Source: a virus
Lineage: Duplodnaviria > Caudoviricetes
Virus record (IMG/VR): IMGVR_UViG_3300028840_001835
Length of the DNA: 64,000 nucleotides
Strand: one strand, 5' to 3'
The position numbers and the translations under genes were made by a program. This document shows positions 29,949 through 58,655 of this stretch, piece by piece. The notes under the pieces were generated by a model. That model made no database searches, was not told where the DNA came from, and saw nothing but the letters and a program-made list of their open reading frames with translations. Position 1 is the first letter of the stretch. Every line of letters starts with the position of its first letter.

Positions 29949-30228
29949 ATTTAATAAAGCAAAGGATCGTTTTATCGAATTATGTAAGGAGTGTGATGTT
30001 ACCATTCCGTCCATAAAACCCGCCCTGATGACTGATCCTTGTGATGTAACGGATATTAATCAGGTAAGATTGAATGTAGAGAAGATCAAAGATTTTGATA
30101 ATTTTAATACATTTGAATATTATGTCAATCATGTTTTTATCCATTACCTTTGCGAATTAAATGTAACAGATGAAAGTGACCATGTATGTGATTTGATTTG
30201 GGGATGGAAGAAAAGGATATTAAATTGA
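29938..30228 (+). CDS. Hypothetical protein
   Basis: Track ORF 29815-30228; start probably ATG 29938. Confidence 0.5.
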   Translation: MIDRFNKAKDRFIELCKECDVTIPSIKPALMTDPCDVTDINQVRLNVEKIKDFDNFNTFEYYVNHVFIHYLCELNVTDESDHVCDLIWGWKKRILN

Positions 30229-30806
30229 AAAAATATAACATCATATATGCGGATCCGCCCTGGGCATACAATGATAAAATGTCTGGCAATAGGGGTGCGT
30301 GTTATAAGTATGATGTTATGGACATAGAGGAAATTAAAAAGATACCAGTGCAGAATATTGCTGCCGACGATTGCGCCCTATTCATGTGGGCGACAATGCC
30401 TCATTTAAAGAGTGCGTTTAATCTCATGGAGACATGGGGGTTTACATATAAGACTAATGCCTTTACATGGGTGAAGAGGTCAAAGAATGGAAACTGGTTT
30501 ACTGGTTGTGGAAGCTGGACGCGCTCCAATGCGGAGCTTTGCCTCCTTGGTGTGAAGGGTAAGATAAGAAGAAAGAACGCCGATGTAAACTCTGTCATCA
30601 GTGCACGGGTCATGGAGCATAGTAAGAAACCCAACATTGTACGTGACAGGATAGTCAGGTTGATGGGGAATCTCCCAAGAATAGAACTCTTTTCCAGAGA
30701 GAAGATCAAGGGTTGGGATGTATGGGGCAACGAATCAGAGACCAACTTTTGGGATGAATTTACGATCAAGAGAAAAGAAAGTAAATTAAAAGGATTTTTA
30801 AAATGA
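30225..30806 (+). CDS. MT-A70 family N6-adenine methyltransferase
   Basis: IYADPPW, LFMWAT, WGF.YKT, HSKKP, RIELFSR; likely TTG start at 30225. Confidence 0.88.
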   Translation: MKKYNIIYADPPWAYNDKMSGNRGACYKYDVMDIEEIKKIPVQNIAADDCALFMWATMPHLKSAFNLMETWGFTYKTNAFTWVKRSKNGNWFTGCGSWTRSNAELCLLGVKGKIRRKNADVNSVISARVMEHSKKPNIVRDRIVRLMGNLPRIELFSREKIKGWDVWGNESETNFWDEFTIKRKESKLKGFLK

Positions 30807-44278: not shown

Positions 44279-45169
44279 ATGAAAACCAAGCTAACCAAAT
44301 TTATGAAGGGCTACACCAAGAAGGAGAAGGTGCTATTTTTTGATATGCATAATCTCTTATTCAGGTCTCTGTTCGTGTCTCATGGACAGGACCCTCTTGA
44401 CAAGACCTATGGATATTTTAAATTCTTGGTGATGAATGGTATATTTAAGAATATAAAAAACTTTCAACCAACTAAAGTGATAATCGCTTCGGACTCAAGA
44501 AATTATTGGAGGCGTGATATATATCCTGGATACAAGGCATCCAGAAAAGGCATGAGAGATAAATCAGGAATAGACTTTGATCACTTCTTTGGAGTATATG
44601 ACAAATTCATGGAGGATCTTAAAGAGGCGCTTACAATGATTCATTTTCTCGCAGTTCATAGATGCGAGGCTGATGATATAATTGCCGTTCTGACAAAGGA
44701 AAGATTCCAAAAAGATGATGTGGTCAATTACTCGACCGACAAGGATATGTATCAGTTGTTTAAATATAAAAACTATACACAGTTTGATCCAATAAAGAAA
44801 AAATTCATAACACACTTGAATCCAGCCCGGGAATTGGTACTAAAAATACTGACTGGCGATAGAGGTGATGATATCCCCGGCGTCAAGAGCAAATGCGGCC
44901 CTGTTACAGCCCAGCAGATGCTTGACCTGGGGCTAACAAATAGCCTCTTAAACAAGTCGATGGAGGACAATTTCGAGAGGAATAAACAGCTCATAGATTT
45001 CGATATGATACCTTTGGAAATTGTTGAAAAAATTACCTCTGAATTCGATAACTACCATATAAATACATACAATGGTGGAAAAATATTTAACTTTCTTGTC
45101 AAGTATAAACTGAACTTTTTCATAGAGAACTTGCAGGAATTCACACCGTCATTGAAAGAGATAGGTTGA
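44279..45169 (+). CDS. rnh: RNase H / 5'-3' exonuclease (T4 rnh-like)
   Basis: FDMHN, YKASR, EADD, STDKD, GDRGDDIPG. Confidence 0.9.
   Translation: MKTKLTKFMKGYTKKEKVLFFDMHNLLFRSLFVSHGQDPLDKTYGYFKFLVMNGIFKNIKNFQPTKVIIASDSRNYWRRDIYPGYKASRKGMRDKSGIDFDHFFGVYDKFMEDLKEALTMIHFLAVHRCEADDIIAVLTKERFQKDDVVNYSTDKDMYQLFKYKNYTQFDPIKKKFITHLNPARELVLKILTGDRGDDIPGVKSKCGPVTAQQMLDLGLTNSLLNKSMEDNFERNKQLIDFDMIPLEIVEKITSEFDNYHINTYNGGKIFNFLVKYKLNFFIENLQEFTPSLKEIG
45058..45065 (+). promoter_or_regulatory. Intragenic late promoter for the gp4-like gene
   Basis: Exact TATAAATA ~140 nt upstream of the gp4 start. Confidence 0.55.
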
Positions 45170-45207
45170 TGTTAAGATGGTTCGATAGATGGTTTAAGGA
45201 AAAGGTA

Positions 45208-45666
45208 ATGGGAAGATGGTATCAGGGTGAATTTACACCCAAAAACCCAAAGAAATGTATAAATCTTACACTTGGGGGTCAGAAGCCATTCGCCAGATCC
45301 TCTTGGGAAATGCGTTTGATGAATTGGTGCGATTCCAACAAAAATGTGATTAGTTGGGGCTCAGAGATCATCAAGGTACCATATATATTTGAAATCGATC
45401 AAAAGTTACATAACTATTATCCAGATATATGGTGTAAGATCAAAGATAAGGACGGTCTTGTACAGACCTATCTTGTTGAGGTCAAGCCAGATAAACAACA
45501 GAAAAAGCCAGTACCCCCAAGAAATAAAACCCGAAAGGCCATGATGAATTATAACCTGGCCCTCCGAGAATATGTAAAGAATCAAAATAAATGGAAATAT
45601 GCCAAACGTTTTTGTGCGGGGAAAAACTGGAAGTTTAGGATCATCACAGAGAAAATTCTATTCTAG
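45208..45666 (+). CDS. gp4: Head completion nuclease gp4-like (TnsA-N fold)
   Basis: YQGEFTPKNPKK, RSSWE, WGSE...PY, YYPD, VEVKP, KW..A..FC; start refined to ATG 45208. Confidence 0.88.
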   Translation: MGRWYQGEFTPKNPKKCINLTLGGQKPFARSSWEMRLMNWCDSNKNVISWGSEIIKVPYIFEIDQKLHNYYPDIWCKIKDKDGLVQTYLVEVKPDKQQKKPVPPRNKTRKAMMNYNLALREYVKNQNKWKYAKRFCAGKNWKFRIITEKILF

Positions 45667-45680
45667 GAGGGCACAGCTCG

Positions 45681-47909
45681 ATGTCAATAAAGGAGCTTCA
45701 GGAATACACACGGATTTCAAAATATGCAAGATATAACCACGAATGCGCAAGACGGGAGACCTGGGATGAACAGATAAATCGGGTCGTCAACATGCACCTC
45801 ATCAAGTATGCTAATGTAAACATAACTGATGAGTTGAAAGTCGTGGAACAGGCTATGAAGAGGAGACTCGTCCTCGGTTCTCAACGAGCCCTACAATTTG
45901 GAGGAAGGGCGATACTTGAGAAAAATGCACGGCTATATAATTGCACAGCATCATATTGTGATCGACCTCGTTTCTTTCAGGAAACGATGTGGTTACTTCT
46001 TTGTGGTTGTGGTGTAGGATTTAGTGTTCAGAAACATCACATAGCCAAACTTCCAAAGATCAAGAAACCAACCGGAAGAACATATTCCATAAAGATAGAG
46101 GATTCGATTGAGGGTTGGGCCGATGCCATTGGACAACTTCTTTCATCCTATTTTCAGAGCGATCAACCACATCCCGAGGTAAAGAATTTTACAATTGAAT
46201 TTGATTACTCCGATATAAGACCAGCAGGTTCTATAATCAAATCTAGTGGCGGGAAGGCTCCCGGGCCTGAAGGATTGAAAAACTCAATCGAAAAGATTAG
46301 ACAACTGCTTGATAAAATCTGCGATGATGGTCTTACCAGATTAAGACCTATAGACGCATATGATATAGTCATGCATATATCAGACGCGGTCTTGTCCGGT
46401 GGCGTACGGCGTTCTGCAACAATATGTTTATTCTCATTGGATGATGAGGAAATGATGAATGCCAAGATTGGCAATTGGATGAGTACGAATCCACAGAGGG
46501 CCCGAAGTAACAATTCAGTCATCCTTCTTAGAGATAAAACATACTATAAGGACTTTAAGGAGATCATTGAGAATGTAAAACAATTTGGGGAGCCTGGATT
46601 TGTATGGGCCGATGATCTTGAATTTCTAGTCAACCCATGTGTTGAGATAGGTATATATGCCTATGATAGTAAGGGAAATAGTGGATGGGGGTTTTGTAAT
46701 CTTTGCGAAATAAACATGAAGAAAGCAAAGACCCGTGAGCAGTTTCTTCAAATGTGTGAATATGCAGCGACCATGGGAACATTACAAGCTGGATATAATT
46801 CCTTCCCCTATCTTGGCAAACCTTCAGAGGAAATAGTAAAACGGGAAGCACTACTTGGCGTGTCTATGACAGGCATGATGGATAATCCAGATATAGCCTT
46901 TGATGAGGAACTTCAGCGAGAAGGTGCAAGATTAGTCAGAAAGACCAATGAGAGAATTGCAGGAAAGATTGGAATTAACATAGCTGCTCGGGCGACCTGC
47001 GTAAAACCCGCTGGTAGCACTAGCTGCATACTTGGTACGGCGTCCGGAATCCATCCACATCATTCAAAGAGATATTTTAGACGACAGCAGTCCAATAAGA
47101 TGGAAGAACCGTTACTATATTTTAAGAAGATCAACCCTCTCGCCGTCGAGGAGTCCGTATGGTCGACTAATAACACAGATGAAATGATTACTTTCGTCTG
47201 CGAAGTACCGGCCAACGCAAGAACAAAGGTGAACATAGAGGGAATCAAACTTCTTGAATATGTCAAACTGACTCAGAAGAACTGGGTACAATCTGGAAGA
47301 GATAAAAGTCGTTGCGTTAAAGAATGGTTGAGTCATAACGTTTCAAATACTATTCATGTGAAAGACGATGAATGGGATGAGGTATCCAAATACATATATC
47401 AAAATAGAAAATTCTTTGCTGGTATTTCAATTCTTCCAATCGACGGAGACAAGGACTACCCTCAAGCACCATTTACGACCGTATATACACCAGATGAGAT
47501 AGTAAAGGAATATGGAGATGGGTCATTAATGGCTTCTGGTCTTATTGTTGATGGGATGAGGGCATGGGATGATGATCTATGGGCAGCATGTGCGTGTGTA
47601 CTTGGGCATGGGGAAAACATAACCCTTCCTGACTTTAATAGTGTGAAACAACGAAATAGATGGAAGAGAGAAAATAACTATGATGAGAAGATGGAATGGT
47701 TGCGAAGGGCTAAGCAATTCTCAGATAGATACTTCAATGAAGATTTAAGAAAGATGACATACTGTCTAAAGGATGTATATAACTGGAAACTATGGTGCGA
47801 CCTCAAACGTGAATATAAACCAGTCAACTGGGAAGACTTTCACGAGGAGAGGGACAACACAAAAATAACAGATACTGTTGCATGTGCGGGAGGCAAGTGT
47901 GATCTGTAG
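45681..47909 (+). CDS. nrdJ: Class II (B12-dependent) ribonucleotide reductase
   Basis: NCT, GCGVGFS, SGGVRRSA, NPCVEI, FCNL.EI, TCVKPAGS; no ATP-cone and no small subunit nearby. Confidence 0.85.
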   Translation: MSIKELQEYTRISKYARYNHECARRETWDEQINRVVNMHLIKYANVNITDELKVVEQAMKRRLVLGSQRALQFGGRAILEKNARLYNCTASYCDRPRFFQETMWLLLCGCGVGFSVQKHHIAKLPKIKKPTGRTYSIKIEDSIEGWADAIGQLLSSYFQSDQPHPEVKNFTIEFDYSDIRPAGSIIKSSGGKAPGPEGLKNSIEKIRQLLDKICDDGLTRLRPIDAYDIVMHISDAVLSGGVRRSATICLFSLDDEEMMNAKIGNWMSTNPQRARSNNSVILLRDKTYYKDFKEIIENVKQFGEPGFVWADDLEFLVNPCVEIGIYAYDSKGNSGWGFCNLCEINMKKAKTREQFLQMCEYAATMGTLQAGYNSFPYLGKPSEEIVKREALLGVSMTGMMDNPDIAFDEELQREGARLVRKTNERIAGKIGINIAARATCVKPAGSTSCILGTASGIHPHHSKRYFRRQQSNKMEEPLLYFKKINPLAVEESVWSTNNTDEMITFVCEVPANARTKVNIEGIKLLEYVKLTQKNWVQSGRDKSRCVKEWLSHNVSNTIHVKDDEWDEVSKYIYQNRKFFAGISILPIDGDKDYPQAPFTTVYTPDEIVKEYGDGSLMASGLIVDGMRAWDDDLWAACACVLGHGENITLPDFNSVKQRNRWKRENNYDEKMEWLRRAKQFSDRYFNEDLRKMTYCLKDVYNWKLWCDLKREYKPVNWEDFHEERDNTKITDTVACAGGKCDL

Positions 47910-47918
47910 GAGAGAAAA

Positions 47919-48602
47919 ATGGTAACCGATACAATATTGGCCAAGGCGTGTCTTGAGTCATATAAAGAAAAAATAATGCCAAACTTAGAAGGGTTTGAAT
48001 GCGATATAATCACAAAGGGAAACGACCGATGTCTCATATTCTATAATGAAAAGGACGTGGTGGTTGTCTTTACTGGCTCTAATGATCTTGAAGATTGGTG
48101 GACGAATGTTCAGTTTATCAAACAGGAGACTCTCTATGGAAAGATACATAATGGTTTCTGGGAGGCATGGCTTGATCTCAGGTCATTGACAAGAACAGCT
48201 CTTGAACGTGTTAATGCGAAAGATAAAAACATATATGTTACTGGACATTCACTTGGAGGGGCTCTCGCTTGTCTATTCTCTGTGGACTCATTCTATAGTG
48301 CATGGATCAAACGACTTGTTACCTTTGGACAACCCCGAGTCGGAAACTGGACATGGAAAGGAAAATTCAAGACGTTAATGGGACCACGGGAATGTGTTCG
48401 ATATATCAATAATCAGGATACGGTCACAAAGATACCATCATTCTTTTTCTTTCATGTGGGACGACCTGTTTACTTTGATAAACATGGAAGAAAGACAATC
48501 AAGAAACCATGGAGCTGGAAATTTATAATTAGAAAGATCAAAGGAATTAATGATCATTCAATGAGAACATACTTTCAGCTTTTGGACGATCATCGGCTTT
48601 AG
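47919..48602 (+). CDS. Lipase class 3 (alpha/beta hydrolase)
   Basis: VFTGS, IHNGF, TGHSLGG, TFGQPRVG, D.VT.IP, DHSM..Y. Confidence 0.88.
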   Translation: MVTDTILAKACLESYKEKIMPNLEGFECDIITKGNDRCLIFYNEKDVVVVFTGSNDLEDWWTNVQFIKQETLYGKIHNGFWEAWLDLRSLTRTALERVNAKDKNIYVTGHSLGGALACLFSVDSFYSAWIKRLVTFGQPRVGNWTWKGKFKTLMGPRECVRYINNQDTVTKIPSFFFFHVGRPVYFDKHGRKTIKKPWSWKFIIRKIKGINDHSMRTYFQLLDDHRL

Positions 48603-48751
48603 ATTAAATGTTTATTAGTAAACGGTCCGGACTTTCCAGGAATTATATTGCACCTTTTTGTACACCAAGTCCGGAATCCAAAAATTTAATCCAAAAATAA
48701 AAAACAATTCAATCAAGTTTTTCTATATTTGACATAAAAAAGGATATAATT

Positions 48752-48922
48752 ATGAATCAAAATAAAGAGAAATTTGAACAGGTTGAGGTTGAACTTGACG
48801 ACCAAATATTATTGGAACTGGCACTGGAAGCACATAGACGGGACATAACGTTGAACGCCTTATGTAACGATATACTTCAGAAACACATAAAGGAGAATGA
48901 AACAAAGAATGGCGTCACATAA
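48752..48922 (+). CDS. Small hypothetical protein (56 aa; not in track)
   Basis: Hand-translated MNQNKEKFEQVEVELDDQILLELALEAHRRDITLNALCNDILQKHIKE...; RBS AGGA. Confidence 0.6.
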   Translation: MNQNKEKFEQVEVELDDQILLELALEAHRRDITLNALCNDILQKHIKENETKNGVT

Positions 48923-49364
48923 TCCAATATTAAATGAACAGTTTATTGAATCCGTACTCAATAAAGTGATCAAGGCCAGGGTAAAATCGAAAAACAAAAA
49001 ACTCATGGTGCAAAATGTGAAATGTTGGTATGATATGATCCAGGGCGGACTGAGTGTCTCGATTGATCTTAAATATTATAGAATAAGTTATGTGATTAGT
49101 GATTATATACTTCGGGAAAATAATGTCCATGATGTGATGATCGAGGTCGTTAAGAAGTTTGAGTTTGAATTGGAGAAGATCAAAGAATTGTTTTCAAAAA
49201 TAAAGAATAGAAACGATGCGCTCCTGAATTGCAAATCTGATGATAAATTATTGAGAGATTTTTGTATTAATGTAATCAAAGGAAAGATTAAGATTGATGA
49301 CATTAAACAAATTAGAGATGTTGATCAATTTGAAGAGGCTGAATGGATTATAAACCATACTTGA
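48897..49364 (+). CDS. Hypothetical protein with shared NDALL module
   Basis: 155 aa; carries the module shared with ORFs 52782 and 53407. Confidence 0.55.
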   Translation: MKQRMASHNPILNEQFIESVLNKVIKARVKSKNKKLMVQNVKCWYDMIQGGLSVSIDLKYYRISYVISDYILRENNVHDVMIEVVKKFEFELEKIKELFSKIKNRNDALLNCKSDDKLLRDFCINVIKGKIKIDDIKQIRDVDQFEEAEWIINHT

Positions 49365-50665
49365 TGAAGGATGTATATGCCGCGGAGAAGAAAAACCTTT
49401 TCAAGGTCATAAGTTTGTTCGCTGGTATGGGTGGAAGTTCTACCGGTTACCGACTGGCTGGTGGTAATGTAATAGCCGCGAATGAGTTTATGGAATCGGC
49501 ACGAAAAATATACTCTAAAAATTATCCCCATACATTAGTCATACCCGAGGACATACGAAAACTAACGGGTAAAAAGATATTGAACCAAGTAGGATTGAAG
49601 AAGGGGGAGCTGGATGTGCTTGACGGTTCACCGCCATGCGCCTCCTTCTCAAATCAGGTACTAAAGACCAGAGAGAAATCATGGGGAAAGAAAAAGATAT
49701 ATTCAAAAACTGTTCAACGGGTCGATGATCTTTTTTTCGAATTCGCACGAATTTTAAATGAGATTCAACCAAAAGTGTTCATAGCTGAGAACGTCCGCGG
49801 GTTGACTATGGGGAACGCCAAAAAAATACTCGGATCAAAATCAAAGAGCCTGACAGCTTTTGGTAAATTGAAAAAGGATTTAAGTGAGACTCAGACTATA
49901 ACAGAGGCGCTCCGTTCCTGTGGATATAAGGTGTCATTCAAGTTATTAAACTCTCTGGACTTTGGTGTTCCAGAAAAACGTGTTCGACTAATTTTCATAG
50001 GGGTAAGAAATGATATAGACTTTCGGCCATCATTTCCAAAATCAATCAATACAAAACCGATACATGCTAAAGACGTAATTGGCCATCTTCTTTTCAATGG
50101 ATCACAATTCTGGATGAGACCCGATACGGTTGTCTGTAAGACAATGAAGAAATACTTTCCTGCGCTTACTGATCGTGAAGCCATAATGAAGATATCAAGG
50201 GGACAGAATATCAAGGAACTATATGAGTCCATCTATGACAGAACGAATTGGTTCAACACCCATTTCACAATATGTCAGTCCAATCGTCCAATACATGCTC
50301 TAGTCGATAGATGGGAATCAATAGAGGAAGCCAAAGCGATACAGTCATTTCCAGAGGACTTTGATCTACTTCAAGAGAATGTGGAGACAAGAATGTTATC
50401 CATCAACGAGCTGGAAGGTCTAACTGGCCTGGCTAACCATGAAGCAGGATTCAATTGTTGTGATGTGGACAAAGTTTTAAAATTGTCCAAGTTAAACGTG
50501 TCTAGGGATGATAAGTTTTTTAGATTAGATTTTAAGACTAGCAATAAACGTGCTGATGCCATAGGCCATGCTCAGAGTTGGGAGTATATAGGTCGAGCGG
50601 TCCCGCCGCTAATGATGAAGGCAATAGCAAAGCATGTATATGAAAACATATTGAAAGCGGTATGA
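49343..50665 (+). CDS. C5-cytosine DNA methyltransferase homolog 1 (motif X GRAVPP; predicted carboxymethyltransferase)
   Basis: SLFAGMGG (I), DGSPPC (IV), AENV (VI), R.RLIFIG (VIII), QSFPEDF (IX), IGRAVPP (X). Confidence 0.85.
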   Translation: MDYKPYLMKDVYAAEKKNLFKVISLFAGMGGSSTGYRLAGGNVIAANEFMESARKIYSKNYPHTLVIPEDIRKLTGKKILNQVGLKKGELDVLDGSPPCASFSNQVLKTREKSWGKKKIYSKTVQRVDDLFFEFARILNEIQPKVFIAENVRGLTMGNAKKILGSKSKSLTAFGKLKKDLSETQTITEALRSCGYKVSFKLLNSLDFGVPEKRVRLIFIGVRNDIDFRPSFPKSINTKPIHAKDVIGHLLFNGSQFWMRPDTVVCKTMKKYFPALTDREAIMKISRGQNIKELYESIYDRTNWFNTHFTICQSNRPIHALVDRWESIEEAKAIQSFPEDFDLLQENVETRMLSINELEGLTGLANHEAGFNCCDVDKVLKLSKLNVSRDDKFFRLDFKTSNKRADAIGHAQSWEYIGRAVPPLMMKAIAKHVYENILKAV

Positions 50666-50913
50666 AATTTAGAATTAAACAATACAAATATAATGATTGT
50701 GGGGATATTTATTTTATGTATACCCCTCAGGTTAAACTAGGAATATTAAGTAGTTGGTTAAATATTTATCCAACTCCAACAGATGGTGCCGATGCCTCAA
50801 ATAGTTGTGAATATTCTTATAAGACAAAAAAGGAAGCAGTGAATCTTATTGAAAAATATAAATTTCAAAAAAGAGAAATTAAAATAATAGTAAGTTATCA
50901 AAAGGTCCAATGA
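50662..50913 (+). CDS. Hypothetical protein
   Basis: 83 aa, coupled overlap. Confidence 0.5.
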   Translation: MKFRIKQYKYNDCGDIYFMYTPQVKLGILSSWLNIYPTPTDGADASNSCEYSYKTKKEAVNLIEKYKFQKREIKIIVSYQKVQ

Positions 50914-51140
50914 AACCAATAGAAGCCAAATATGTATGTAAGATAAAAAATAAATCAATATTTGATACAGGAATTGATATTGATGAAGGCGGGTGGAGTC
51001 TATTTGAAACATTTAAAAAATTCATAAATGAAACTATAGAAATTAATTCAATTGAATATAGATTGATTGGTGTGGATTATCAGAGATGTATAAGCTGGGG
51101 ACAAAAGAGAACCATAATGTTAATGGTGGATGAAATTTAA
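50910..51140 (+). CDS. Hypothetical protein
   Basis: 76 aa, coupled overlap. Confidence 0.5.
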   Translation: MKPIEAKYVCKIKNKSIFDTGIDIDEGGWSLFETFKKFINETIEINSIEYRLIGVDYQRCISWGQKRTIMLMVDEI

Positions 51141-51450
51141 AATGAATTTTATTACAAGTATAAGCGATGACATTGACGGATGGGTTAAATTAGAAGCAAA
51201 TCTTGATATGGTCAGACATGATTTTCTTGACAAATTAGGAAGATTGATGTTTCTTACTACAGTCAAATATAAAGCAAAGGTGGAAGTGTTTCGATTACCC
51301 GGGGGATTACATAATCTTAATCATACAAAATCAATAACTTTGGTTTTAGAGTTTGAGAGAAAAGGGATAAATAAAGTCGCAGCAATATTAAAGAGTCTAA
51401 AGTTTGACATAAGCCTATTGGAGCGGAATCGTGAATATGTATATGGATGA
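51130..51450 (+). CDS. Hypothetical protein
   Basis: 106 aa. Confidence 0.5.
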   Translation: MKFKMNFITSISDDIDGWVKLEANLDMVRHDFLDKLGRLMFLTTVKYKAKVEVFRLPGGLHNLNHTKSITLVLEFERKGINKVAAILKSLKFDISLLERNREYVYG

Positions 51451-52807
51451 TAGATATAAAGTTCCAACGATGGACGAGGTTCATAAACTATCCTCACAGG
51501 AAAAGTTCAATGTGATTTCATTGTTCGCTGGTATGGGTGGAAGCTCTACTGGTTACCGAATGGCGGGTGCAAAGATACTCGCAGTCAATGAATTTATGAA
51601 GGCGGCTAGGTCAATATATAATAGAAACTATCCAGATACATATATATTCCCCGATGATATACGAACACTAAATGGTGTTCAGATGTTAAAGAAACTTGGT
51701 CTTAAGGTTGGAGAACTTGATCTTCTTGATGGCTCACCTCCTTGCGCCTCATTCTCCATGGCCGGAAAACGGAAGAAGATGTGGGGCGAGGTGAAGGGAT
51801 ATTCATCCACAAAGCAGCGTGTGGACGATCTGTTCTATGAATTTTCAAGGATACTTAAAGATATGCAACCCAAGACCTTCATAGCAGAGAACGTGAAGGG
51901 GCTTGCGCTTGGTGATGTAAAGGCTCTGCTCGGAAACAAGGGTAAGGGACTGGAGAACTTTTTTGGTAAGGCGAGGAATGTGGGTATCATTCATGAGAAG
52001 GATAACATAATTAAGACACTAAGAGCGTGTGGATACAAGGTGTCTTATAAGGTTCTGAATTCAATAGAGTTCGGCGTTCCGCAAATAAGGGAGAGGTTGA
52101 TTTTTGTTGGCGTACGGGATGATCTTGGAATGAGCCCATCATTCCCAGAGGGGAATAAGGGGTTTCGGCAGAGACCGATAAAGGCGGGAGATGTGATGTT
52201 TCCATTCATATTCAACGGCTGTGAGAGGAATCTGACCCACGGGACGAAGGAGTGGGACTATATACATAACTGGTTTAAACCATTAACCACCCTTCATCAG
52301 GTGACCAAGATAGCAAAGAAGAACAACCTCAAAGCGTTCTGCCAGAGGATGCCACGGGATAACTGGTTCTACCCTCATCGGACGATCCTCCAATCAGACT
52401 ATAACATTCATGCGCTGGTCAATAGATACACGGCCGTGAACGAATCAAAATTACTTCAATCATTCCCATCAGACTTTGATGTACTGGGTCAGCCATTCAA
52501 GAGAATAAAAGTTTCAGTCAACGATTTACTTAAAAAGAAATTCAATTGTTATAATTTTCAAGCAGGACAGGACTCTGGAGATATACCATACATTTGTTCT
52601 CTCGTAGATTTTCCAAAGGAACGTTGGGATGAAAAATGTTTCTATCTTGATTTAAAGGAACCAGAGATTAAAGTTGATACCAAGTCACAATATTACAATA
52701 TACTTGGACATAGTAAGTCAAATGAATTTGTTGGAAGGGCCGTTCCTCCTCTATTGATGAAGGCAGTCGCGGAGCATGTATATGAAAAAATCATCTCAAA
52801 AATATAA
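51431..52807 (+). CDS. C5-cytosine DNA methyltransferase homolog 2 (motif X GRAVPP; predicted carboxymethyltransferase)
   Basis: SLFAGMGG, DGSPPC, AENV, RERLIFVG, QSFPSDF, VGRAVPP; start uncertain (51431/51437/51443). Confidence 0.85.
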   Translation: MNMYMDDRYKVPTMDEVHKLSSQEKFNVISLFAGMGGSSTGYRMAGAKILAVNEFMKAARSIYNRNYPDTYIFPDDIRTLNGVQMLKKLGLKVGELDLLDGSPPCASFSMAGKRKKMWGEVKGYSSTKQRVDDLFYEFSRILKDMQPKTFIAENVKGLALGDVKALLGNKGKGLENFFGKARNVGIIHEKDNIIKTLRACGYKVSYKVLNSIEFGVPQIRERLIFVGVRDDLGMSPSFPEGNKGFRQRPIKAGDVMFPFIFNGCERNLTHGTKEWDYIHNWFKPLTTLHQVTKIAKKNNLKAFCQRMPRDNWFYPHRTILQSDYNIHALVNRYTAVNESKLLQSFPSDFDVLGQPFKRIKVSVNDLLKKKFNCYNFQAGQDSGDIPYICSLVDFPKERWDEKCFYLDLKEPEIKVDTKSQYYNILGHSKSNEFVGRAVPPLLMKAVAEHVYEKIISKI

Positions 52808-53156
52808 ACTGCCAGAATTTGAAAATTTATCAATTCCATTAATAAGGAGACAGTTTCCAAAATTATTTGCTAATAAGATTGTTAATGTTCAACCAATGAA
52901 CGGACCGTCTGGGTTGGCTTATGCGTTTATAAACGAGGAAATAAGAAAATTGATAATTAGAATCACGACAAAGAATCAGGCGTTATTATATGTGACCCAT
53001 AATAATAGATTTGTTAGAGAACATTGTATAAACATATTAAAGGAAAAAAACAAAAATGGGAATCGGAGTAAAACTAGGAAATCCTCTAGAAGAAAAACCA
53101 ATCGATCATTTAATGATGAAACTAATGGCTCAGGAGATTCAAAAAGAGATCGATAA
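52782..53156 (+). CDS. Chimeric small protein with a gp23-like segment and the NDALL module
   Basis: SIPLIRRQFPKLFANKIVNVQPMNGPSGLAYA; RBS GGAG. Confidence 0.65.
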   Translation: MKKSSQKYKLPEFENLSIPLIRRQFPKLFANKIVNVQPMNGPSGLAYAFINEEIRKLIIRITTKNQALLYVTHNNRFVREHCINILKEKNKNGNRSKTRKSSRRKTNRSFNDETNGSGDSKRDR

Positions 53157-53241
53157 TATGATACTTAAACAAATAAATAAAATTTCAAAACCCCCAGCAA
53201 TAGAGGTAAAGGTATGCCGTTCTACGATTATCAGTGTGTAG
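53056..53241 (+). CDS. Hypothetical protein
   Basis: 61 aa; overlaps the previous ORF by ~100 nt. Confidence 0.4.
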   Translation: MGIGVKLGNPLEEKPIDHLMMKLMAQEIQKEIDNMILKQINKISKPPAIEVKVCRSTIISV

Positions 53242-53423
53242 GGTGCGATAGAATACAGGAGGAACGACATTCGATCACAGAGACTCCTGAAATCAAATGT
53301 AACTATTGCGCCGCTCCATGTAAAAGACTCATGCCCGGAGATATGAATTACATTCTTAGAGGCGACGGATGGAATGGTAAACGGATAAAGAGAGAAGGAG
53401 AGAAAGGTGGAGAGAGCAATTGA
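53214..53423 (+). CDS. FmdB-family zinc-ribbon protein
   Basis: MPFYDYQC..C...E..H......C..C....KR. Confidence 0.75.
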   Translation: MPFYDYQCVGCDRIQEERHSITETPEIKCNYCAAPCKRLMPGDMNYILRGDGWNGKRIKREGEKGGESN

Positions 53424-53607
53424 TGTTTTACAACGAATGTTAATTCGACAACAGAAGGATATAATGAAAGTCGATGAATATTATAATGAAGTATCCGGAT
53501 GGGGTCTTTTAGAAAAAATTAAAACCAAAAACGATGCGTTGCTATACATGACACATGATAGCAAACTTGTGAGAAATAAATGCAAGGAGATATTACATGA
53601 CAAATAA
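53407..53607 (+). CDS. Hypothetical protein with the NDALL module
   Basis: IKTKNDALLYMTHDSKLVRNKCKEIL. Confidence 0.55.
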   Translation: MERAIDVLQRMLIRQQKDIMKVDEYYNEVSGWGLLEKIKTKNDALLYMTHDSKLVRNKCKEILHDK

Positions 53608-54295
53608 AGATAATCATTTGAAAAAAGGTTCAAAGGAGTTCTCATTTGATGACATGGAAGATTTCGATACTCATATTGATCTGTCCATACCAAACTACTC
53701 TTTTGTTTTGGAGCAGGTAAGAAATCTATCCGATTATTTCATAGAGGATAACACCAATGTATATGACTTGGGTTGTTCCACTGGAAAATTCCTAAAGTCT
53801 CTTAATAGAAGGGATGGTGTAAGATATGTCGGCATAGATATAAGTAAAAATCTATTGCCCAAGAAGGAGGAATATCCAGATATCCGTTTTGAATGTTCTG
53901 ACCTTCTAAATTATAATGACTACAACACTGCGAGCTTTGTGGTGTCAATGTTTACATTACAATTTCTACCCCTCTCATCAAGAAAGAGATTGATTCAGAA
54001 GATAAACAATTCGTTGATACCTGGAGGTGCATTTATATCTTGCGAGAAGATATATTCCAGTAACGCCAAGTTTCAGGACATTACCAATAGTCTATATTAC
54101 GAGAAGAAAAACGAGCATTTCTCCGGAGACGCCATTCTGCAGAAGGAAAAGGATCTTAGAAAGATAATGAAGATACAATCAATTGAACAGTCGATAAAGG
54201 ACATGGAGGAAATTGGACCTGTCGATATATTCTGGCGCTCCTTTAATTTTGTTGGCTTAATAGCCGTGAGAAAACCATATACATCAGGTCTATAA
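53597..54295 (+). CDS. cmoA: CmoA-like carboxy-SAM synthase
   Basis: FDTHIDLSIPNY, VYDLGCSTG, ASFVVSMFTLQFL, L.PGGAF..CEK, W.SFNF collinear with E. coli CmoA as I recall it. Confidence 0.85.
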   Translation: MTNKDNHLKKGSKEFSFDDMEDFDTHIDLSIPNYSFVLEQVRNLSDYFIEDNTNVYDLGCSTGKFLKSLNRRDGVRYVGIDISKNLLPKKEEYPDIRFECSDLLNYNDYNTASFVVSMFTLQFLPLSSRKRLIQKINNSLIPGGAFISCEKIYSSNAKFQDITNSLYYEKKNEHFSGDAILQKEKDLRKIMKIQSIEQSIKDMEEIGPVDIFWRSFNFVGLIAVRKPYTSGL

Positions 54296-54356
54296 TCCAC
54301 AAATACTAATAATCCAAAAAATAAAATTCTATATTGAGAAAAACTAAAAGGAGAAT

Positions 54357-55097
54357 ATGATGACAAAAGAAGTACAACCCCAGGATGTCACCTTCGAGAA
54401 AAAGACCCTGGAGCTAATCAACGAGTTGACCAAGATCAACACCAAGTTAATGATAGAGCATGAGGAGGTTGAGAAGGGCAAGGAGCCTGAAAATATAATC
54501 ATTGATGGTACTAATCCAGATACCACAATCGCATATAAATTTTCCGCGCCAAAGGAACATTTTGAGTTTGAGGGTGACGAGGTCGCCTTTTATGACTATA
54601 GCCAGTTCTTCGAGCTGCTTAGTGTTTTTGACAAACCAAAGATTTCCCAGATCGGTGATGAGAAGTTTGAGATAAAACAGAACAAGTCCAAGATCACATA
54701 CTTCATCTCAGATTCGGAGGCGGTTGATGTTGGGTTCTCAGAGGTTGACTTTAAAGACCCGGAGCTTTCATTCTGCATTAGTGATGAACAGTTCAAGGAT
54801 TTACGAAACATGCTCAGGCTCATCGAGGCCGAGAATGTGACCATCTCTGTCGCCGAGGACACGGTGACGGTCAAGCTGTCAACTGGTGACAAAGATAATT
54901 CATATGAGACTCAGTTCAAGACAGAGGAATGGGACGGGACTGAGTTTAGTATAACTTTATCAAAGGATATTTGGGAGAAGGCCCCCGAAGGTTCCTATGA
55001 TATACAAGTCAAGCAGGAAGGTATAATCAGGCTCAAGTATCTTGAGAATGATGCCATCTCCTTGGATTTATACACCGCAGAAATAGAGGAAGAGTAA
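54357..55097 (+). CDS. gp45: Sliding clamp gp45
   Basis: TLELI..L.KIN, F.F...AFYD..QF..LLS.F..P; size and position before gp44. Confidence 0.8.
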   Translation: MMTKEVQPQDVTFEKKTLELINELTKINTKLMIEHEEVEKGKEPENIIIDGTNPDTTIAYKFSAPKEHFEFEGDEVAFYDYSQFFELLSVFDKPKISQIGDEKFEIKQNKSKITYFISDSEAVDVGFSEVDFKDPELSFCISDEQFKDLRNMLRLIEAENVTISVAEDTVTVKLSTGDKDNSYETQFKTEEWDGTEFSITLSKDIWEKAPEGSYDIQVKQEGIIRLKYLENDAISLDLYTAEIEEE

Positions 55098-55606
55098 TGG
55101 AAGACCCTGAGAAGAAAGATGATCTATTGAGATCAGATTATAGTCTGGATCCTGTTGAGGAACAGATTGATGTTCAGGTTCCTGAAGGGCAGGAAGGTGA
55201 GTTTTTTGATCTTCCGCATTTGGAAAAAATAAAACTCGCCGCACAGCAACATGGGGTCTCTCTTAAGGATCCTGATAAGGACTGTAACAAATGTCATGGT
55301 CGAGGCTATGTATCGGTTAGATCATTCACGATCTCTGCCGATGACAAAGAGGTAACAAGAGAGATTCCAAATCCTTGTAAGTGTGTCTTTGAGAAACATG
55401 ATCTTCCAAAGATGTTTACGGGTATGATATCGTTGGGCAGAAAGGAAAGACATAGAAACGATAAACGGGAAAGAAGGATAACCCGAAAAGAGTTTCACAC
55501 ATCTGCATCCAACATACTTGAACATAAACTCAAAAAGGAGTTTAAGGTAAAGAGAAAGAAGAAAAAGAAACAACAGAAAAAGGATAGAAAAAGGAATAGA
55601 CGGTGA
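55097..55606 (+). CDS. Hypothetical protein with a CxxCxGxG zinc motif and basic tail
   Basis: DCNKCHGRGY...PCKC; K/R-rich C-terminus. Confidence 0.6.
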   Translation: MEDPEKKDDLLRSDYSLDPVEEQIDVQVPEGQEGEFFDLPHLEKIKLAAQQHGVSLKDPDKDCNKCHGRGYVSVRSFTISADDKEVTREIPNPCKCVFEKHDLPKMFTGMISLGRKERHRNDKRERRITRKEFHTSASNILEHKLKKEFKVKRKKKKKQQKKDRKRNRR

Positions 55607-56553
55607 AACCTAACACAAAGAGAAAAAAGAATAAGTATATCTGGATAGAGTTTTTTCGTCCAATGTCCGTAGAGGACATAATACTTCCGAAGGCATATAT
55701 GAAGACCTTTAGGAAGTTTGTCGAGGAAAAGGAGATACCAAATCTTATGTTGTATTCATCCAGCCCTGGTGTTGGAAAGACGACATTGGCTAAAGCACTA
55801 TGTAATGACATAGGCGCGGATTATCTCTATATAAACGTGTCCAGTGAAAGCGGGATCGATACATTGAGAACATCCATCTCCAGATTCGCATCCACAAAGT
55901 CATTTAATGGTAAGCCAAAGATCGTCATAATGGACGAGTTCGATGGTGCATCCAATAATCTTCAGATGGGCCTTCGTGCAGCGATAGAGGAATTCCATAA
56001 GGTATGTCGATTCATATTTACTTGCAACTATATAACACAGATAAAGGATCCTGTGTTGTCAAGGTGCCAGGTGTTTGATATGAACTTCACCGATAAGAAG
56101 ATTAAAGACGAAATGGTTCCAAAGGTGACCAATCGTGTCTGTAAGATACTCGACTTTAAAAAGGTCGACTATGACAATAGCGTGATCGTAAAGTTGGTCG
56201 AGGATCATTACCCAGACATTAGAAAAACTATTCAAATATGTCAACAGTATAGTGCAGTGAATGGTGTTATAGATAGTAATATTTTTAATTATGAGAAAGT
56301 GGATGAGGAGTTCTATACATATCTTCTCAATAAGGATTTTCGGAATGCAAGAAAATACTTAATTGAAAGTAATTACAATTATGAAGAAATGTTCACTAAT
56401 CTATATCATCATTTTGTTCCAATGTTGACTAAAGAAGTTCAGCCTGAGGCGATTATAACCATTGCTGAGTATATGTATAAAAATAGTCATTCAATTGATA
56501 AAGAAATAAACTTCGCCGCACTCATGCTTGAACTAATGGGACTTATTCAATGA
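55603..56553 (+). CDS. gp44: Clamp loader large subunit gp44
   Basis: W.E.FRP, PGVGKTT, MDEFD, RFIFTCNY, SRC; GTG start. Confidence 0.93.
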   Translation: MKPNTKRKKNKYIWIEFFRPMSVEDIILPKAYMKTFRKFVEEKEIPNLMLYSSSPGVGKTTLAKALCNDIGADYLYINVSSESGIDTLRTSISRFASTKSFNGKPKIVIMDEFDGASNNLQMGLRAAIEEFHKVCRFIFTCNYITQIKDPVLSRCQVFDMNFTDKKIKDEMVPKVTNRVCKILDFKKVDYDNSVIVKLVEDHYPDIRKTIQICQQYSAVNGVIDSNIFNYEKVDEEFYTYLLNKDFRNARKYLIESNYNYEEMFTNLYHHFVPMLTKEVQPEAIITIAEYMYKNSHSIDKEINFAALMLELMGLIQ

Positions 56554-56792
56554 AAAAGATATTAAAAATGTTAGGGTCTGAATTCATTGAATATTTACAG
56601 TACCTAGGAATGATAGTATTTGGTCTATTTGGTATAGTATTATTATTGTTTCTATGTCTCGGTGGGTTATTCTCAATTGGATTTGGCGTTCCATGTTACA
56701 TTGCGATACCCGTACAGCTTTTGTTTTGGTTCATCTTGAAAGTTTATTTCGATCATCAACCGCCATTAAATAGTGATGGATTTTTTGGATGA
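56550..56792 (+). CDS. Membrane hypothetical protein
   Basis: Two hydrophobic stretches. Confidence 0.55.
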   Translation: MKKILKMLGSEFIEYLQYLGMIVFGLFGIVLLLFLCLGGLFSIGFGVPCYIAIPVQLLFWFILKVYFDHQPPLNSDGFFG

Positions 56793-57079
56793 AACAATTA
56801 GATATAAGGGTTTTTCATAGAGAAAAACCTAATGGTGTATATGTATTCATACTTGATGATTGCTTCATTTGTCAGGAGTATCTCAAGGAATTAAAGAAAA
56901 TAGATACATCGGATTGGTATCTAATTGACTGCGGACAGAATGCCGGATATTTTCTTCGACAACATAATGTGGATGATGTTCCACATACCAGAGTATATAT
57001 TGATGGAGAGATCATTTGGGAACGTTCCGGTGCATTATATGAAAAACAAAGACGGGAGTTATTTGAGAAGCTAAAATGA
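56789..57079 (+). CDS. Thioredoxin-like protein
   Basis: CFIC (CxxC), V..VP.T, downstream G. Confidence 0.7.
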   Translation: MKQLDIRVFHREKPNGVYVFILDDCFICQEYLKELKKIDTSDWYLIDCGQNAGYFLRQHNVDDVPHTRVYIDGEIIWERSGALYEKQRRELFEKLK

Positions 57080-57804
57080 TTCGATACATTGTTGCAGCAG
57101 ATAATGAGGATAACTATAACCGATTTTTAAAACCCTCGCTTGAAAAGATAGAAGCCCTTGATAGGGTTACCCTAGTATTAAATAAGGATTTAGATGAAGG
57201 TATATTCAAGAAATATAACCTTGTCTTAAATATGCTTTCAAGTAAAGGAAAGATCAATGATGAGGATGTGTTTGTTTTTGTACATGATGATGTATCGTTT
57301 GAGGATGAGAATCTAGAGGGAAAGATTGAATTATATTTTAGGTATAAAGATAACATCGGGATTGCTGGAGTAATCGGAACAACCATATTTCCGGCAGAGG
57401 GTGGATGGTGGATGTGCGACCGCTCAAAACGAACAAGGGGTAGAATTATACAAGGTCATCCCGATCAACCTGATCATGTGATGGAAGACAAAAAAGGTAT
57501 GTTTGATGACCTTGTATCGGTTGATGGATGTATATTGTTTATGAGTGGACGATTCCTAAAAGACTTTCGTTTTGATGAACAGACCTATGATGGATACCAT
57601 TTTTATGATGTAGATTCATGCTTCACCGCTTTAAGAAAAGGATTCTCCATTGGTATCATTGATGTATTGGTTAGACATGAATCTGAAGGTCCTCTCTCAG
57701 ACTCTTGGTTTACAGAACGAGACAAATTCATCAAGAAATGGACCGCCAGGGGTATGAAGTTTCCCATTCTTAGGGAACATTTATATCAGAATATAAATAG
57801 TTAA
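57076..57804 (+). CDS. Glycosyltransferase family 2-like
   Basis: FVHDDV, GIAGVIG, SVDG..L, FDE..Y.G.HFYD.D, H.S.G. Confidence 0.8.
   Translation: MIRYIVAADNEDNYNRFLKPSLEKIEALDRVTLVLNKDLDEGIFKKYNLVLNMLSSKGKINDEDVFVFVHDDVSFEDENLEGKIELYFRYKDNIGIAGVIGTTIFPAEGGWWMCDRSKRTRGRIIQGHPDQPDHVMEDKKGMFDDLVSVDGCILFMSGRFLKDFRFDEQTYDGYHFYDVDSCFTALRKGFSIGIIDVLVRHESEGPLSDSWFTERDKFIKKWTARGMKFPILREHLYQNINS
57792..57799 (+). promoter_or_regulatory. T4-type late promoter TATAAATA for the lysis cassette
   Basis: Exact consensus upstream of the endolysin. Confidence 0.75.
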
Positions 57805-57825: not shown

Positions 57826-58251
57826 TTGTGTATGCCGAAATTTGGAAGAAGATCATTGAGGGAACTGAAGACCTGTCATAAGGATTTACAGGACATATTA
57901 AATGAAGCAATCAAGTATGTGGACTTTTCTGTTCTACAGGGCAACCGAGACGAGGAGACCCAGAATAAGTATTTTGAACAGGGCAAGTCTAAATTAAAAT
58001 ATCCGAATAGTAAACATAACCCATATCCATCGCTTGCCGTCGATCTTGTACCATACCCTATTGATTGGGGTGACATTAAAAGAATCGGCGCGGTGGCTTT
58101 TGTGATCAAAGGAATCGCCTTCTCAAAGGGGATCAAATTAAGGCTCGGCGTTGATTGGAATAGTGATTATAGATTCACAGAGAGTTTTGTTGATTCACCA
58201 CATATCGAATTACATAGTAAATTGATTGATGGTGAGTGGGTGAGGTATTAA
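57826..58251 (+). CDS. Endolysin, M15 family L-Ala-D-Glu peptidase-like
   Basis: G.R....Q, SKH.....AVD, D.PH.EL zinc-ligand motifs. Confidence 0.88.
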   Translation: MCMPKFGRRSLRELKTCHKDLQDILNEAIKYVDFSVLQGNRDEETQNKYFEQGKSKLKYPNSKHNPYPSLAVDLVPYPIDWGDIKRIGAVAFVIKGIAFSKGIKLRLGVDWNSDYRFTESFVDSPHIELHSKLIDGEWVRY

Positions 58252-58655
58252 TGGATGGTCTAGAAGATTTTTACGAAACAATGTGCAGAATTTCTCCGGT
58301 TGGTTTATTCAGGACTGACGAGACCGGAAGGATAACTTATGTCAATCAAAAGTATGAGGACATAGCCCAAATATCAAGAGGGCAAATACTTGGGGTTGGA
58401 TGGTTTGATGCTGTTCATCTTGACGATGTGAAAAAGGTTTCTAACACCTGGTATAATGCTATTGAAAATAATCTTGATTGGAATCTTGAATTTAGATTTA
58501 GATCAAAAGATAAACAGGTCACATGGGTATTGGGTCAAGCTGCAAAGATCAATGGCGGGGGAAAGGGATATGTTGGAACCCTAACAAACATCTCCAAGAA
58601 AAAACAATTGCTTGACGAACTGATGACAATACGAACAGAGATGTTCGCATTGTAA
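58251..58655 (+). CDS. Stand-alone PAS-domain protein
   Basis: SPVGLFRTD..GRITYVN......G.GW..AVH.DD...EFRF...DG-like WVL...YVGT..NI; TAATG overlap with the endolysin stop. Confidence 0.85.
   Translation: MDGLEDFYETMCRISPVGLFRTDETGRITYVNQKYEDIAQISRGQILGVGWFDAVHLDDVKKVSNTWYNAIENNLDWNLEFRFRSKDKQVTWVLGQAAKINGGGKGYVGTLTNISKKKQLLDELMTIRTEMFAL

Follow-up and report, generated by a model that had tools for sequence, protein, structure and literature searches.

A complete marine T4-like phage genome encodes a carboxy-SAM synthase homologue and two arginine-type cytosine C5-transferases predicted to write 5-carboxymethylcytosine

We analysed a 64,000-nucleotide stretch of virus DNA (IMG/VR record IMGVR_UViG_3300028840_001835), called the window here, which is the minus strand of positions 52165-116164 in a virus record of 202,503 bp. 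Three genes of the window, cmoX-1, cmoX-2 and cmoA, were found to be homologous to the enzymes of the CmoA-CmoX pathway, and the locus is a further member of this published family. From the sequences, we consider it likely that CmoA makes Cx-SAM (carboxy-S-adenosylmethionine) and that at least one of the two CmoX proteins uses it to write 5-carboxymethylcytosine (5cxmC). Homology, residue equivalence and gene context are direct observations, as is the outcome of a search for an amide ligase, none of which was found in the complete genome.

Both the chemistry and the enzyme family have been known since December 2025 from the CmoA-CmoX-CmoY system of Synechococcus phage S-B43 (Yang et al., Nat Commun 2025; PMC12783734), and the locus described here opens no new question. 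In that system, SpCmoA makes Cx-SAM from S-adenosylmethionine (SAM) and prephenate with a kcat of 2.33 per s, compared with 0.23 per s for the Escherichia coli enzyme. SpCmoX (PDB 8YF3) then writes 5cxmC at GC sites, and SpCmoY, an asparagine-synthetase-like ligase, adds glycine to 5cxmC; the DNA of S-B43 carries the glycine amide but lacks free 5cxmC (PMC12783734). Arg-350 of SpCmoX stands in place of Asn-304 of HhaI and contacts the carboxylate/carboxymethyl group of Cx-SAM; the wild-type enzyme takes Cx-SAM only, while the R350N variant takes neither cofactor (PMC12783734). The same study defines CmoX candidates by the SPPC motif plus R350 and counts 5,615 CmoX, 4,257 CmoA and 2,251 ligases, with several ligase clusters whose amines are unknown. 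It also raises SAM depletion driven by CmoA as a possibility, and its Discussion gives the engineered carboxymethyl transfer of M.MpeI N374K as a precedent. An earlier, sequence-only reading of the window had pointed to a phage pathway to 5cxmC built on CmoA and an arginine-type methyltransferase, the synthesis of carboxy-SAM from SAM and prephenate, and the gain of carboxymethyl transfer by M.MpeI N374K. All three are borne out by this publication, the second for a phage CmoA.

The two transferase genes and their diagnostic motifs are the following.

49343..50665 (+), cmoX-1, long-form DNA cytosine C5-carboxymethyltransferase homologue, subtype 1, 440 aa (PF00145, E 3e-47; 8yf3, E 3.4e-65)
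49628..49639 (+), SPPC motif IV of CmoX-1 with catalytic Cys99, matching S95-P96-P97-C98 of SpCmoX
49787-49795 (+), ENV motif of CmoX-1
50591-50608 (+), G-R-A-V-P-P of CmoX-1
50594..50596 (+), Arg418 codon CGA of CmoX-1, at the position of SpCmoX R350 and M.HhaI N304 (HMMER alignment to 8yf3 340-370)
51431..52807 (+), cmoX-2, long-form DNA cytosine C5-carboxymethyltransferase homologue, subtype 2, 458 aa (PF00145, E 6e-45)
51734..51745 (+), SPPC motif IV of CmoX-2 with catalytic Cys105 (alignment with SpCmoX)
51887-51895 (+), ENV motif of CmoX-2
52733-52750 (+), G-R-A-V-P-P of CmoX-2
52736..52738 (+), Arg436 codon AGG of CmoX-2, at the position of SpCmoX R350 (alignments; codon read)

A profile search found exactly two PF00145 genes in the genome, both of them CmoX, with 47% identity to each other overall. 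The start codon of cmoX-2 is GTG, preceded by GGAG. The sequence-only reading had described two paralogous C5-methyltransferases with intact motifs, and indeed the SPPC, ENV and G-R-A-V-P-P motifs and the motif VIII arginines are present in both proteins. The arginine codons it had placed at 50594-50596 and 52736-52738 are exact. We found that CmoX-1 has its best PDB sequence match in 8yf3 (SpCmoX, E 3.4e-65), an entry titled 'DNA cytosine C5-carboxymethyltransferase in complex with Cx-SAM', and that the CmoX-1 segment 'GHAQSWEYIGRAVPPLMMKAIA' aligns with 8yf3 residues 340-361, 'SHSQQTERVGRMVPPLMMKAIA', which puts R418 on R350. A three-way alignment likewise places R436 of CmoX-2 there, at the position of the motif X asparagine as that reading had proposed, and residues F25, E47, F48, D69, S95, P96, P97, C98 and R350 of SpCmoX are invariant in both paralogues. 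Thirty homologues all keep the G-R pair and SPPC. Both proteins therefore carry the SPPC motif and the arginine at the R350 position by which PMC12783734 defines CmoX, and at motif X they read G-R-A-V rather than the G-N-[AS]-V, with its asparagine, of canonical 5-methylcytosine (5mC) enzymes.

The structure of CmoX-1 points in the same direction. An AlphaFold (AF2) model built from the 30-homologue alignment reached a predicted local distance difference test score (pLDDT) of 89 and a predicted template modelling score (pTM) of 0.90. Its top structural match is 8yf3 (E 9.8e-27, TMt 0.83), which outranks M.HaeIII, M.HhaI and the DNMT1/MET1 group. Overall, the similarity to S-B43 comprises an arginine-type C5 transferase (39% identity by tblastn, 44-45% in a MAFFT alignment) with SPPC, the R350-equivalent arginine and the F25/E47/F48/D69 pocket conserved, and both systems lie among the replication genes of a T4-like phage. 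The engineered M.MpeI N374K also resembles the CmoX proteins, as it has a basic residue at the motif X asparagine position of a C5-methyltransferase fold, and there this residue gives Cx-SAM use and 5cxmC. It differs in that its lysine is engineered into a CG-specific bacterial enzyme supplied by the host CmoA, while here the arginine is natural and the synthase is phage-encoded.

The gene for this synthase and the segment of it discussed below are located as follows.

53597..54295 (+), cmoA, carboxy-SAM synthase homologue, 232 aa (TIGR00740, E 8e-36, full length)
54140..54163 (+), QKEKDLRK segment of CmoA, with E184 at the position of E. coli CmoA R199 and R188 four residues on

The cmoA gene starts 790 bp past the end of cmoX-2 in the same gene run, in agreement with the distance of about 0.8 kb given in the sequence-only reading. 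CmoA covers model positions 14-238 of 239 of TIGR00740 (124 bits), and its top PDB sequence matches are the CmoA/YecO structures 1im8, 4gek and 4iwn (E 1e-21 to 2e-23). Over the full length, it is 38% identical by tblastn and 42% identical in a MAFFT alignment to SpCmoA, the assayed phage enzyme. Identity to the CmoA proteins of related T4-like contigs is 49-54%. In E. coli CmoA, Arg-199 alone contacts the carboxylate of the product, which is bound very tightly (PMC4482062). That E. coli R199 aligns to glutamate in QKEKDLRK, with an arginine one helical turn later, had been noted by eye as a caveat, and E184 and R188 are indeed seen there. We therefore aligned a Salmonella-type CmoA (L011) with eight phage CmoA proteins, namely this one, SpCmoA, five from related metagenomic loci and one from a Staphylococcus phage. 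Lys-198 is invariant across the alignment. The Arg-199 position is Glu, Asp or Ser in 8/8 phage proteins, and an arginine at i+4, the bacterial Glu-203 position, is invariant in the same eight. The active SpCmoA reads DKEKELR, with Glu at the R199 position and Arg at i+4. Since SpCmoA has this glutamate and is the more active enzyme, we conclude that the substitution is a mark of the phage branch and not a defect, and it is one more feature shared with S-B43. Judging from the alignment, the relocated arginine may take over the carboxylate contact and loosen product binding. One could speculate that the one-turn shift is linked to the tenfold higher turnover of SpCmoA.

We infer the activities, when they take place, which motifs they target and what end product results, and the proposed mechanism runs as follows. 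CmoA would turn SAM and host prephenate into Cx-SAM. CmoX-1 and CmoX-2 would use normal C5-methyltransferase chemistry, in which the SPPC cysteine attacks C6 while the flipped cytosine is kept in place by the ENV glutamate and the arginines of motif VIII. The motif X arginine would grip the carboxylate of the cofactor, so that a carboxymethyl group is moved instead of a methyl group, and transfer after replication would yield 5cxmC in phage DNA. The mark would most likely block host restriction. Different sequence contexts would probably be served by the two CmoX subtypes, and as no CmoY-like ligase was found, the mark would probably remain free 5cxmC. No gene of the thymidylate-synthase/dCMP-hydroxymethylase family was found in the genome, and therefore cytosine presumably enters new DNA without modification and receives its mark after replication. 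Because the genome encodes no CmoB, there is no tRNA-type user of Cx-SAM, and the two CmoX proteins are its only visible users.

The relationship of the two CmoX proteins was resolved in a maximum-likelihood tree of 30 homologues. CmoX-1 clusters with P0004, P0005 and P0007 (support 99/98), and CmoX-2 clusters with P0027, P0020, P0016 and P0028 (support 89/88). P0007 and P0027 are products of neighbouring genes on a 24-kb contig (L003), which shares the gene order seen here and has CmoA next. The presence of the same subtype-1 and subtype-2 pair in L003 indicates that the pair is older than the split between these phages. Between CmoX-1 and CmoX-2, the catalytic core is 58% identical and the motif X helix 61%, compared with 35% for the variable (target-recognition) region and 23% for an insert described below. 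The variable regions are 18-22% identical to that of SpCmoX, and thus its GC specificity is not transferable and the target motifs are not predictable; within each subtype, variable-region identity is 32-57%. The two motifs proposed in the sequence-only reading are plausible: as old subtypes whose variable regions and inserts have diverged, the two proteins probably act in different sequence contexts, although, judged from sequence, we would put the case for two different motifs only somewhat above even.

Both CmoX proteins also contain a clade-specific insert that SpCmoX and short-form homologues lack.

50369..50563 (+), insert in CmoX-1 (aa 343-407), separating motifs IX and X
52484..52705 (+), corresponding insert in CmoX-2 (aa 352-425)

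The insert adds 65-85 residues between motif IX (QSFPxDF) and motif X in all 21 proteins of a long-form clade, which is monophyletic (support 99/98 in the same tree) and holds both paralogues. In the full-length model of CmoX-1, it is folded, with short helices bracketed by two strands, and the block means of pLDDT over residues 341-410 are 85-95. Modelled alone, it reached a pLDDT of 70.7 and found no PDB match (best E 5.4). Assignment as a winged-helix domain was rejected, as its Atlas neighbours (TM 0.54-0.63 over about 60 residues) are too weak and give a lead only. Apart from this insert, some long-form CmoX homologues contain an intein. P0017-P0024 (616-648 aa, on other large phage contigs of up to 303 kb) carry an intein of about 160 aa (PF14890, PF13403) directly before the catalytic cysteine of SPPC; in P0018, for example, GSPP is followed by an intein starting with C and then by CSDFS.

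No match to Asn_synthase (PF00733), ATP-grasp_4, AMP-binding or the PP-loop family ATP_bind_3 was found in the complete genome, and for all four families control genomes were positive. In tblastn searches of the genome, neither SpCmoY nor three CmoY-like proteins from close relatives had a match below E 0.3. Weaker matches of the ligase queries (E 0.3-6) lie in unrelated open reading frames (ORFs), one of which looks rather like an ATP-dependent DNA ligase by its KxDG motif. The sequence-only reading had seen no amide-ligase partner in the window, and this extends to the rest of the genome. Its label of hypermodification finds no support here, as we found no enzyme elaborating 5cxmC in the genome. 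The situation in related loci is as follows.

L003, L004, L005/L006 and L010: Asn_synthase-like gene beside CmoX
L009: no Asn_synthase-like gene within 8 kb

Four related long-form CmoX lineages (five loci) thus bear a ligase gene. In one of them, a Peptidase_M16-like gene lies between the CmoY-like ligase and CmoA (L005:12704-13852 and L006:5971-7119), which hints at a variant of the hypermodification pathway. For the phage described here, the lack of any CmoY-like ligase found in the complete genome suggests that the mark probably stays free, unamidated 5cxmC, and we consider it moderately likely that it is elaborated no further. In this the locus differs from S-B43, since without a CmoY the glycine amide 5gcxmC is not expected; it also has two CmoX genes of different subtypes where S-B43 has one, and a folded insert in each that SpCmoX is without.

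We weighed three other explanations of these data. The CmoX proteins could be ordinary SAM-dependent 5mC methyltransferases, with CmoA draining host SAM against SAM-dependent defences or feeding the host tRNA pathway. They do share with M.HhaI, M.HaeIII and other PF00145 enzymes the fold, motifs I, IV, VI, VIII and IX and the covalent cysteine mechanism, and SAM depletion by CmoA was itself raised in PMC12783734. However, they differ from these enzymes in having G-R and not G-N in motif X, an extra subdomain before motif X and a co-encoded Cx-SAM synthase. Wild-type SpCmoX takes Cx-SAM and not SAM, its arginine and all pocket residues are conserved here, and CmoA and arginine-type CmoX co-occur in every related locus examined. 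The CmoA protein does resemble the E. coli CmoA/CmoB pathway to the tRNA base 5-oxyacetyluridine (cmo5U; 4GEK, 4IWN, 1IM8; PMC4482062) in its Cx-SAM synthase fold, with full-length alignment, and in prephenate as the presumed carboxyl donor. Here, though, CmoB is absent from the genome, Arg-199 is replaced by Glu and the presumed acceptor is C5 of DNA cytosine instead of 5-hydroxyuridine (ho5U) of tRNA. Overall, we regard an ordinary 5mC system as highly improbable. A less improbable, but still doubtful, explanation concerns the pair: the two CmoX proteins may not be functionally distinct, acting on the same motif (for dosage, or on hemi- versus unmodified DNA) or with one of them inactive or non-catalytic. 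Specificity is not readable from sequence, and because variable regions diverge even within one subtype, divergence alone is no proof of a different motif. Every catalytic and cofactor residue is nevertheless kept in both proteins, the subtypes separate on the tree, and retention of the same pair in L003 argues for the long-term maintenance of two functions.

The third explanation accepts that 5cxmC is written and adds that an unrecognised enzyme encoded elsewhere elaborates it to an amide, ester or other derivative, so that the final base is hypermodified as in S-B43. Such an enzyme could sit among the approximately 360 ORFs of at least 40 aa called in the genome, most of which are without annotation. 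The ligase genes beside CmoX in the four related lineages, the exclusive presence of the glycine amide in S-B43 DNA and the ligase clusters with unknown amines are all compatible with it. It is set against the negative searches in the complete genome and against L009, which is likewise without a ligase within 8 kb. In addition, small ORFs of the cluster other than a Gp23-like one have no counterpart in relatives, and ligases (2251) are far fewer than CmoX (5615) in the published survey. We regard this explanation as unlikely. Several points also weigh against our own interpretation. Identity to characterised enzymes is only about 38-45%, and all three proteins are known here from sequence. CmoA scores below the NCBIfam equivalog cut-off (124 against 193 bits), and the sole carboxylate-binding residue of E. 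coli CmoA, Arg-199, is not conserved. The genome encodes no chorismate mutase, and therefore prephenate must come from the host. Differing specificities of the two CmoX proteins are deduced solely from the 35% identity of their variable regions. The ligase search covered known families only, many ORFs of the genome lack annotation, and COOH-NH2_lig matched no control genome either, which makes it uninformative.

Free 5cxmC is our preferred reading of the mark. The fuller picture, in which virion DNA carries free 5cxmC as its final mark in two contexts, written by two CmoX subtypes whose insert aids DNA recognition, is put forward tentatively. A complete genome with a synthase, two transferases and no ligase found predicts a natural DNA with negatively charged 5cxmC as its final modification. 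If true, this would be the first natural case of free 5cxmC as a final mark, S-B43 DNA having only the glycine amide. Further recognition specificities were stated to be still needed (PMC12783734), and the two old CmoX subtypes would offer two new, probably different, ones for attaching carboxymethyl handles to DNA. The insert of the long forms adds a structural element that has not been reported for SpCmoX, and the CmoA alignment shows, in each of the eight phage proteins, an arginine one helical turn away from the position of the bacterial Arg-199 contact.

The genome that carries this locus is that of a complete marine T4-like phage of approximately 202.5 kb. The record has direct terminal repeats and a completeness rating of 100%, and the stretch is present in two metagenomes, one from sediment and one from seawater. 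Megablast of a 5-kb stretch against 50,697 phage records gave no match, that is, no nearly identical phage record, and an IMG/VR locus search with a single protein gave one distant match only; the related loci were reached via a protein database. In related T4-like contigs, CmoX and CmoA stay side by side in the locus and hold the same syntenic position, upstream of the genes for the clamp and the clamp loader. The DNA polymerase has its closest phage-record matches in T4-like cyanophages, at about 32% identity. No ParB_N protein was found in the genome.

From approximately 27 kb on, the plus strand of the window carries a T4-like replication and recombination arm. It begins with a gp46-like ATPase, an MT-A70 methyltransferase, a gp47-like phosphoesterase and the DNA polymerase, and continues with UvsX, a DnaB-type helicase, gp32, primase, RNase H and a TnsA-like endonuclease. 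Next in order are genes for a class II ribonucleotide reductase and a class-3 lipase, ahead of the cmoX genes, and a sliding clamp, a clamp loader and a glycosyltransferase-like gene follow cmoA. The cmoX-1, cmoX-2 and cmoA genes lie within a plus-strand run in which successive genes overlap or stand almost end to end. The interval 45058-57792 contains no T4-type late promoter box (TATAAATA), which is consistent with expression of the run alongside the replication genes. Just past a TATAAATA box at 57792 lies a gene for a stand-alone PAS-domain protein of 139 aa (PAS_3, E 8e-13; 58236-58655, +). The MT-A70 methyltransferase gene of the same arm (PF05063, E 2e-28; 30198-30806, +) probably encodes an N6-adenine DNA methyltransferase, which would be a third DNA-modifying transferase besides the two CmoX.

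Small ORFs occupy both gaps of the cluster.

50662..51450 (+), three short coupled ORFs of 83, 76 and 106 aa that separate cmoX-1 from cmoX-2
52776..53607 (+), three small ORFs (126, 69 and 66 aa) between cmoX-2 and cmoA

The 83-, 76- and 106-aa ORFs have no Pfam or PHROG match and no homologue in seven related loci. In the second group, the 69-aa product is a zinc ribbon (Zn_ribbon_8, E 5e-8), and the similarity of the 126-aa product (52776-53156, +) to the major capsid protein Gp23 is confined to the N-terminal part of the latter (PF07068, E 1e-8; phrog_138). This Gp23-like ORF is the sole small ORF of the cluster with relatives, found in L005/L006 at another site; the homologue there, of 82 aa, lies a few genes upstream of CmoX. 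We rejected the idea that the small ORFs are decayed CmoY remnants or conserved partners, given that they have no CmoY-like similarity and no homologues in relatives, and they are probably not part of the modification system.

Upstream of the cluster, a 155-aa ORF (48897-49364, +) without a family match has its stop overlapping the cmoX-1 start. In the ligase-less L009, the ORF immediately upstream of CmoX is a weak match to it (27% over 96 aa, E 4e-4). The class-3 lipase gene (PF01764, E 1e-25; 47919-48602, +) has the ribonucleotide reductase on one side and the cmoX genes on the other, a position taken in related contigs by a patatin-like gene or by a lipase-fold gene similar to Tle1 of the type VI secretion system (T6SS). 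Downstream of the clamp loader, the glycosyltransferase-like gene (Glyco_tranf_2_5, E 3e-19; 57076-57804, +) is kept at the same place in L004, L005, L006 and L009 (33-53% identity), with or without a CmoY-like ligase.

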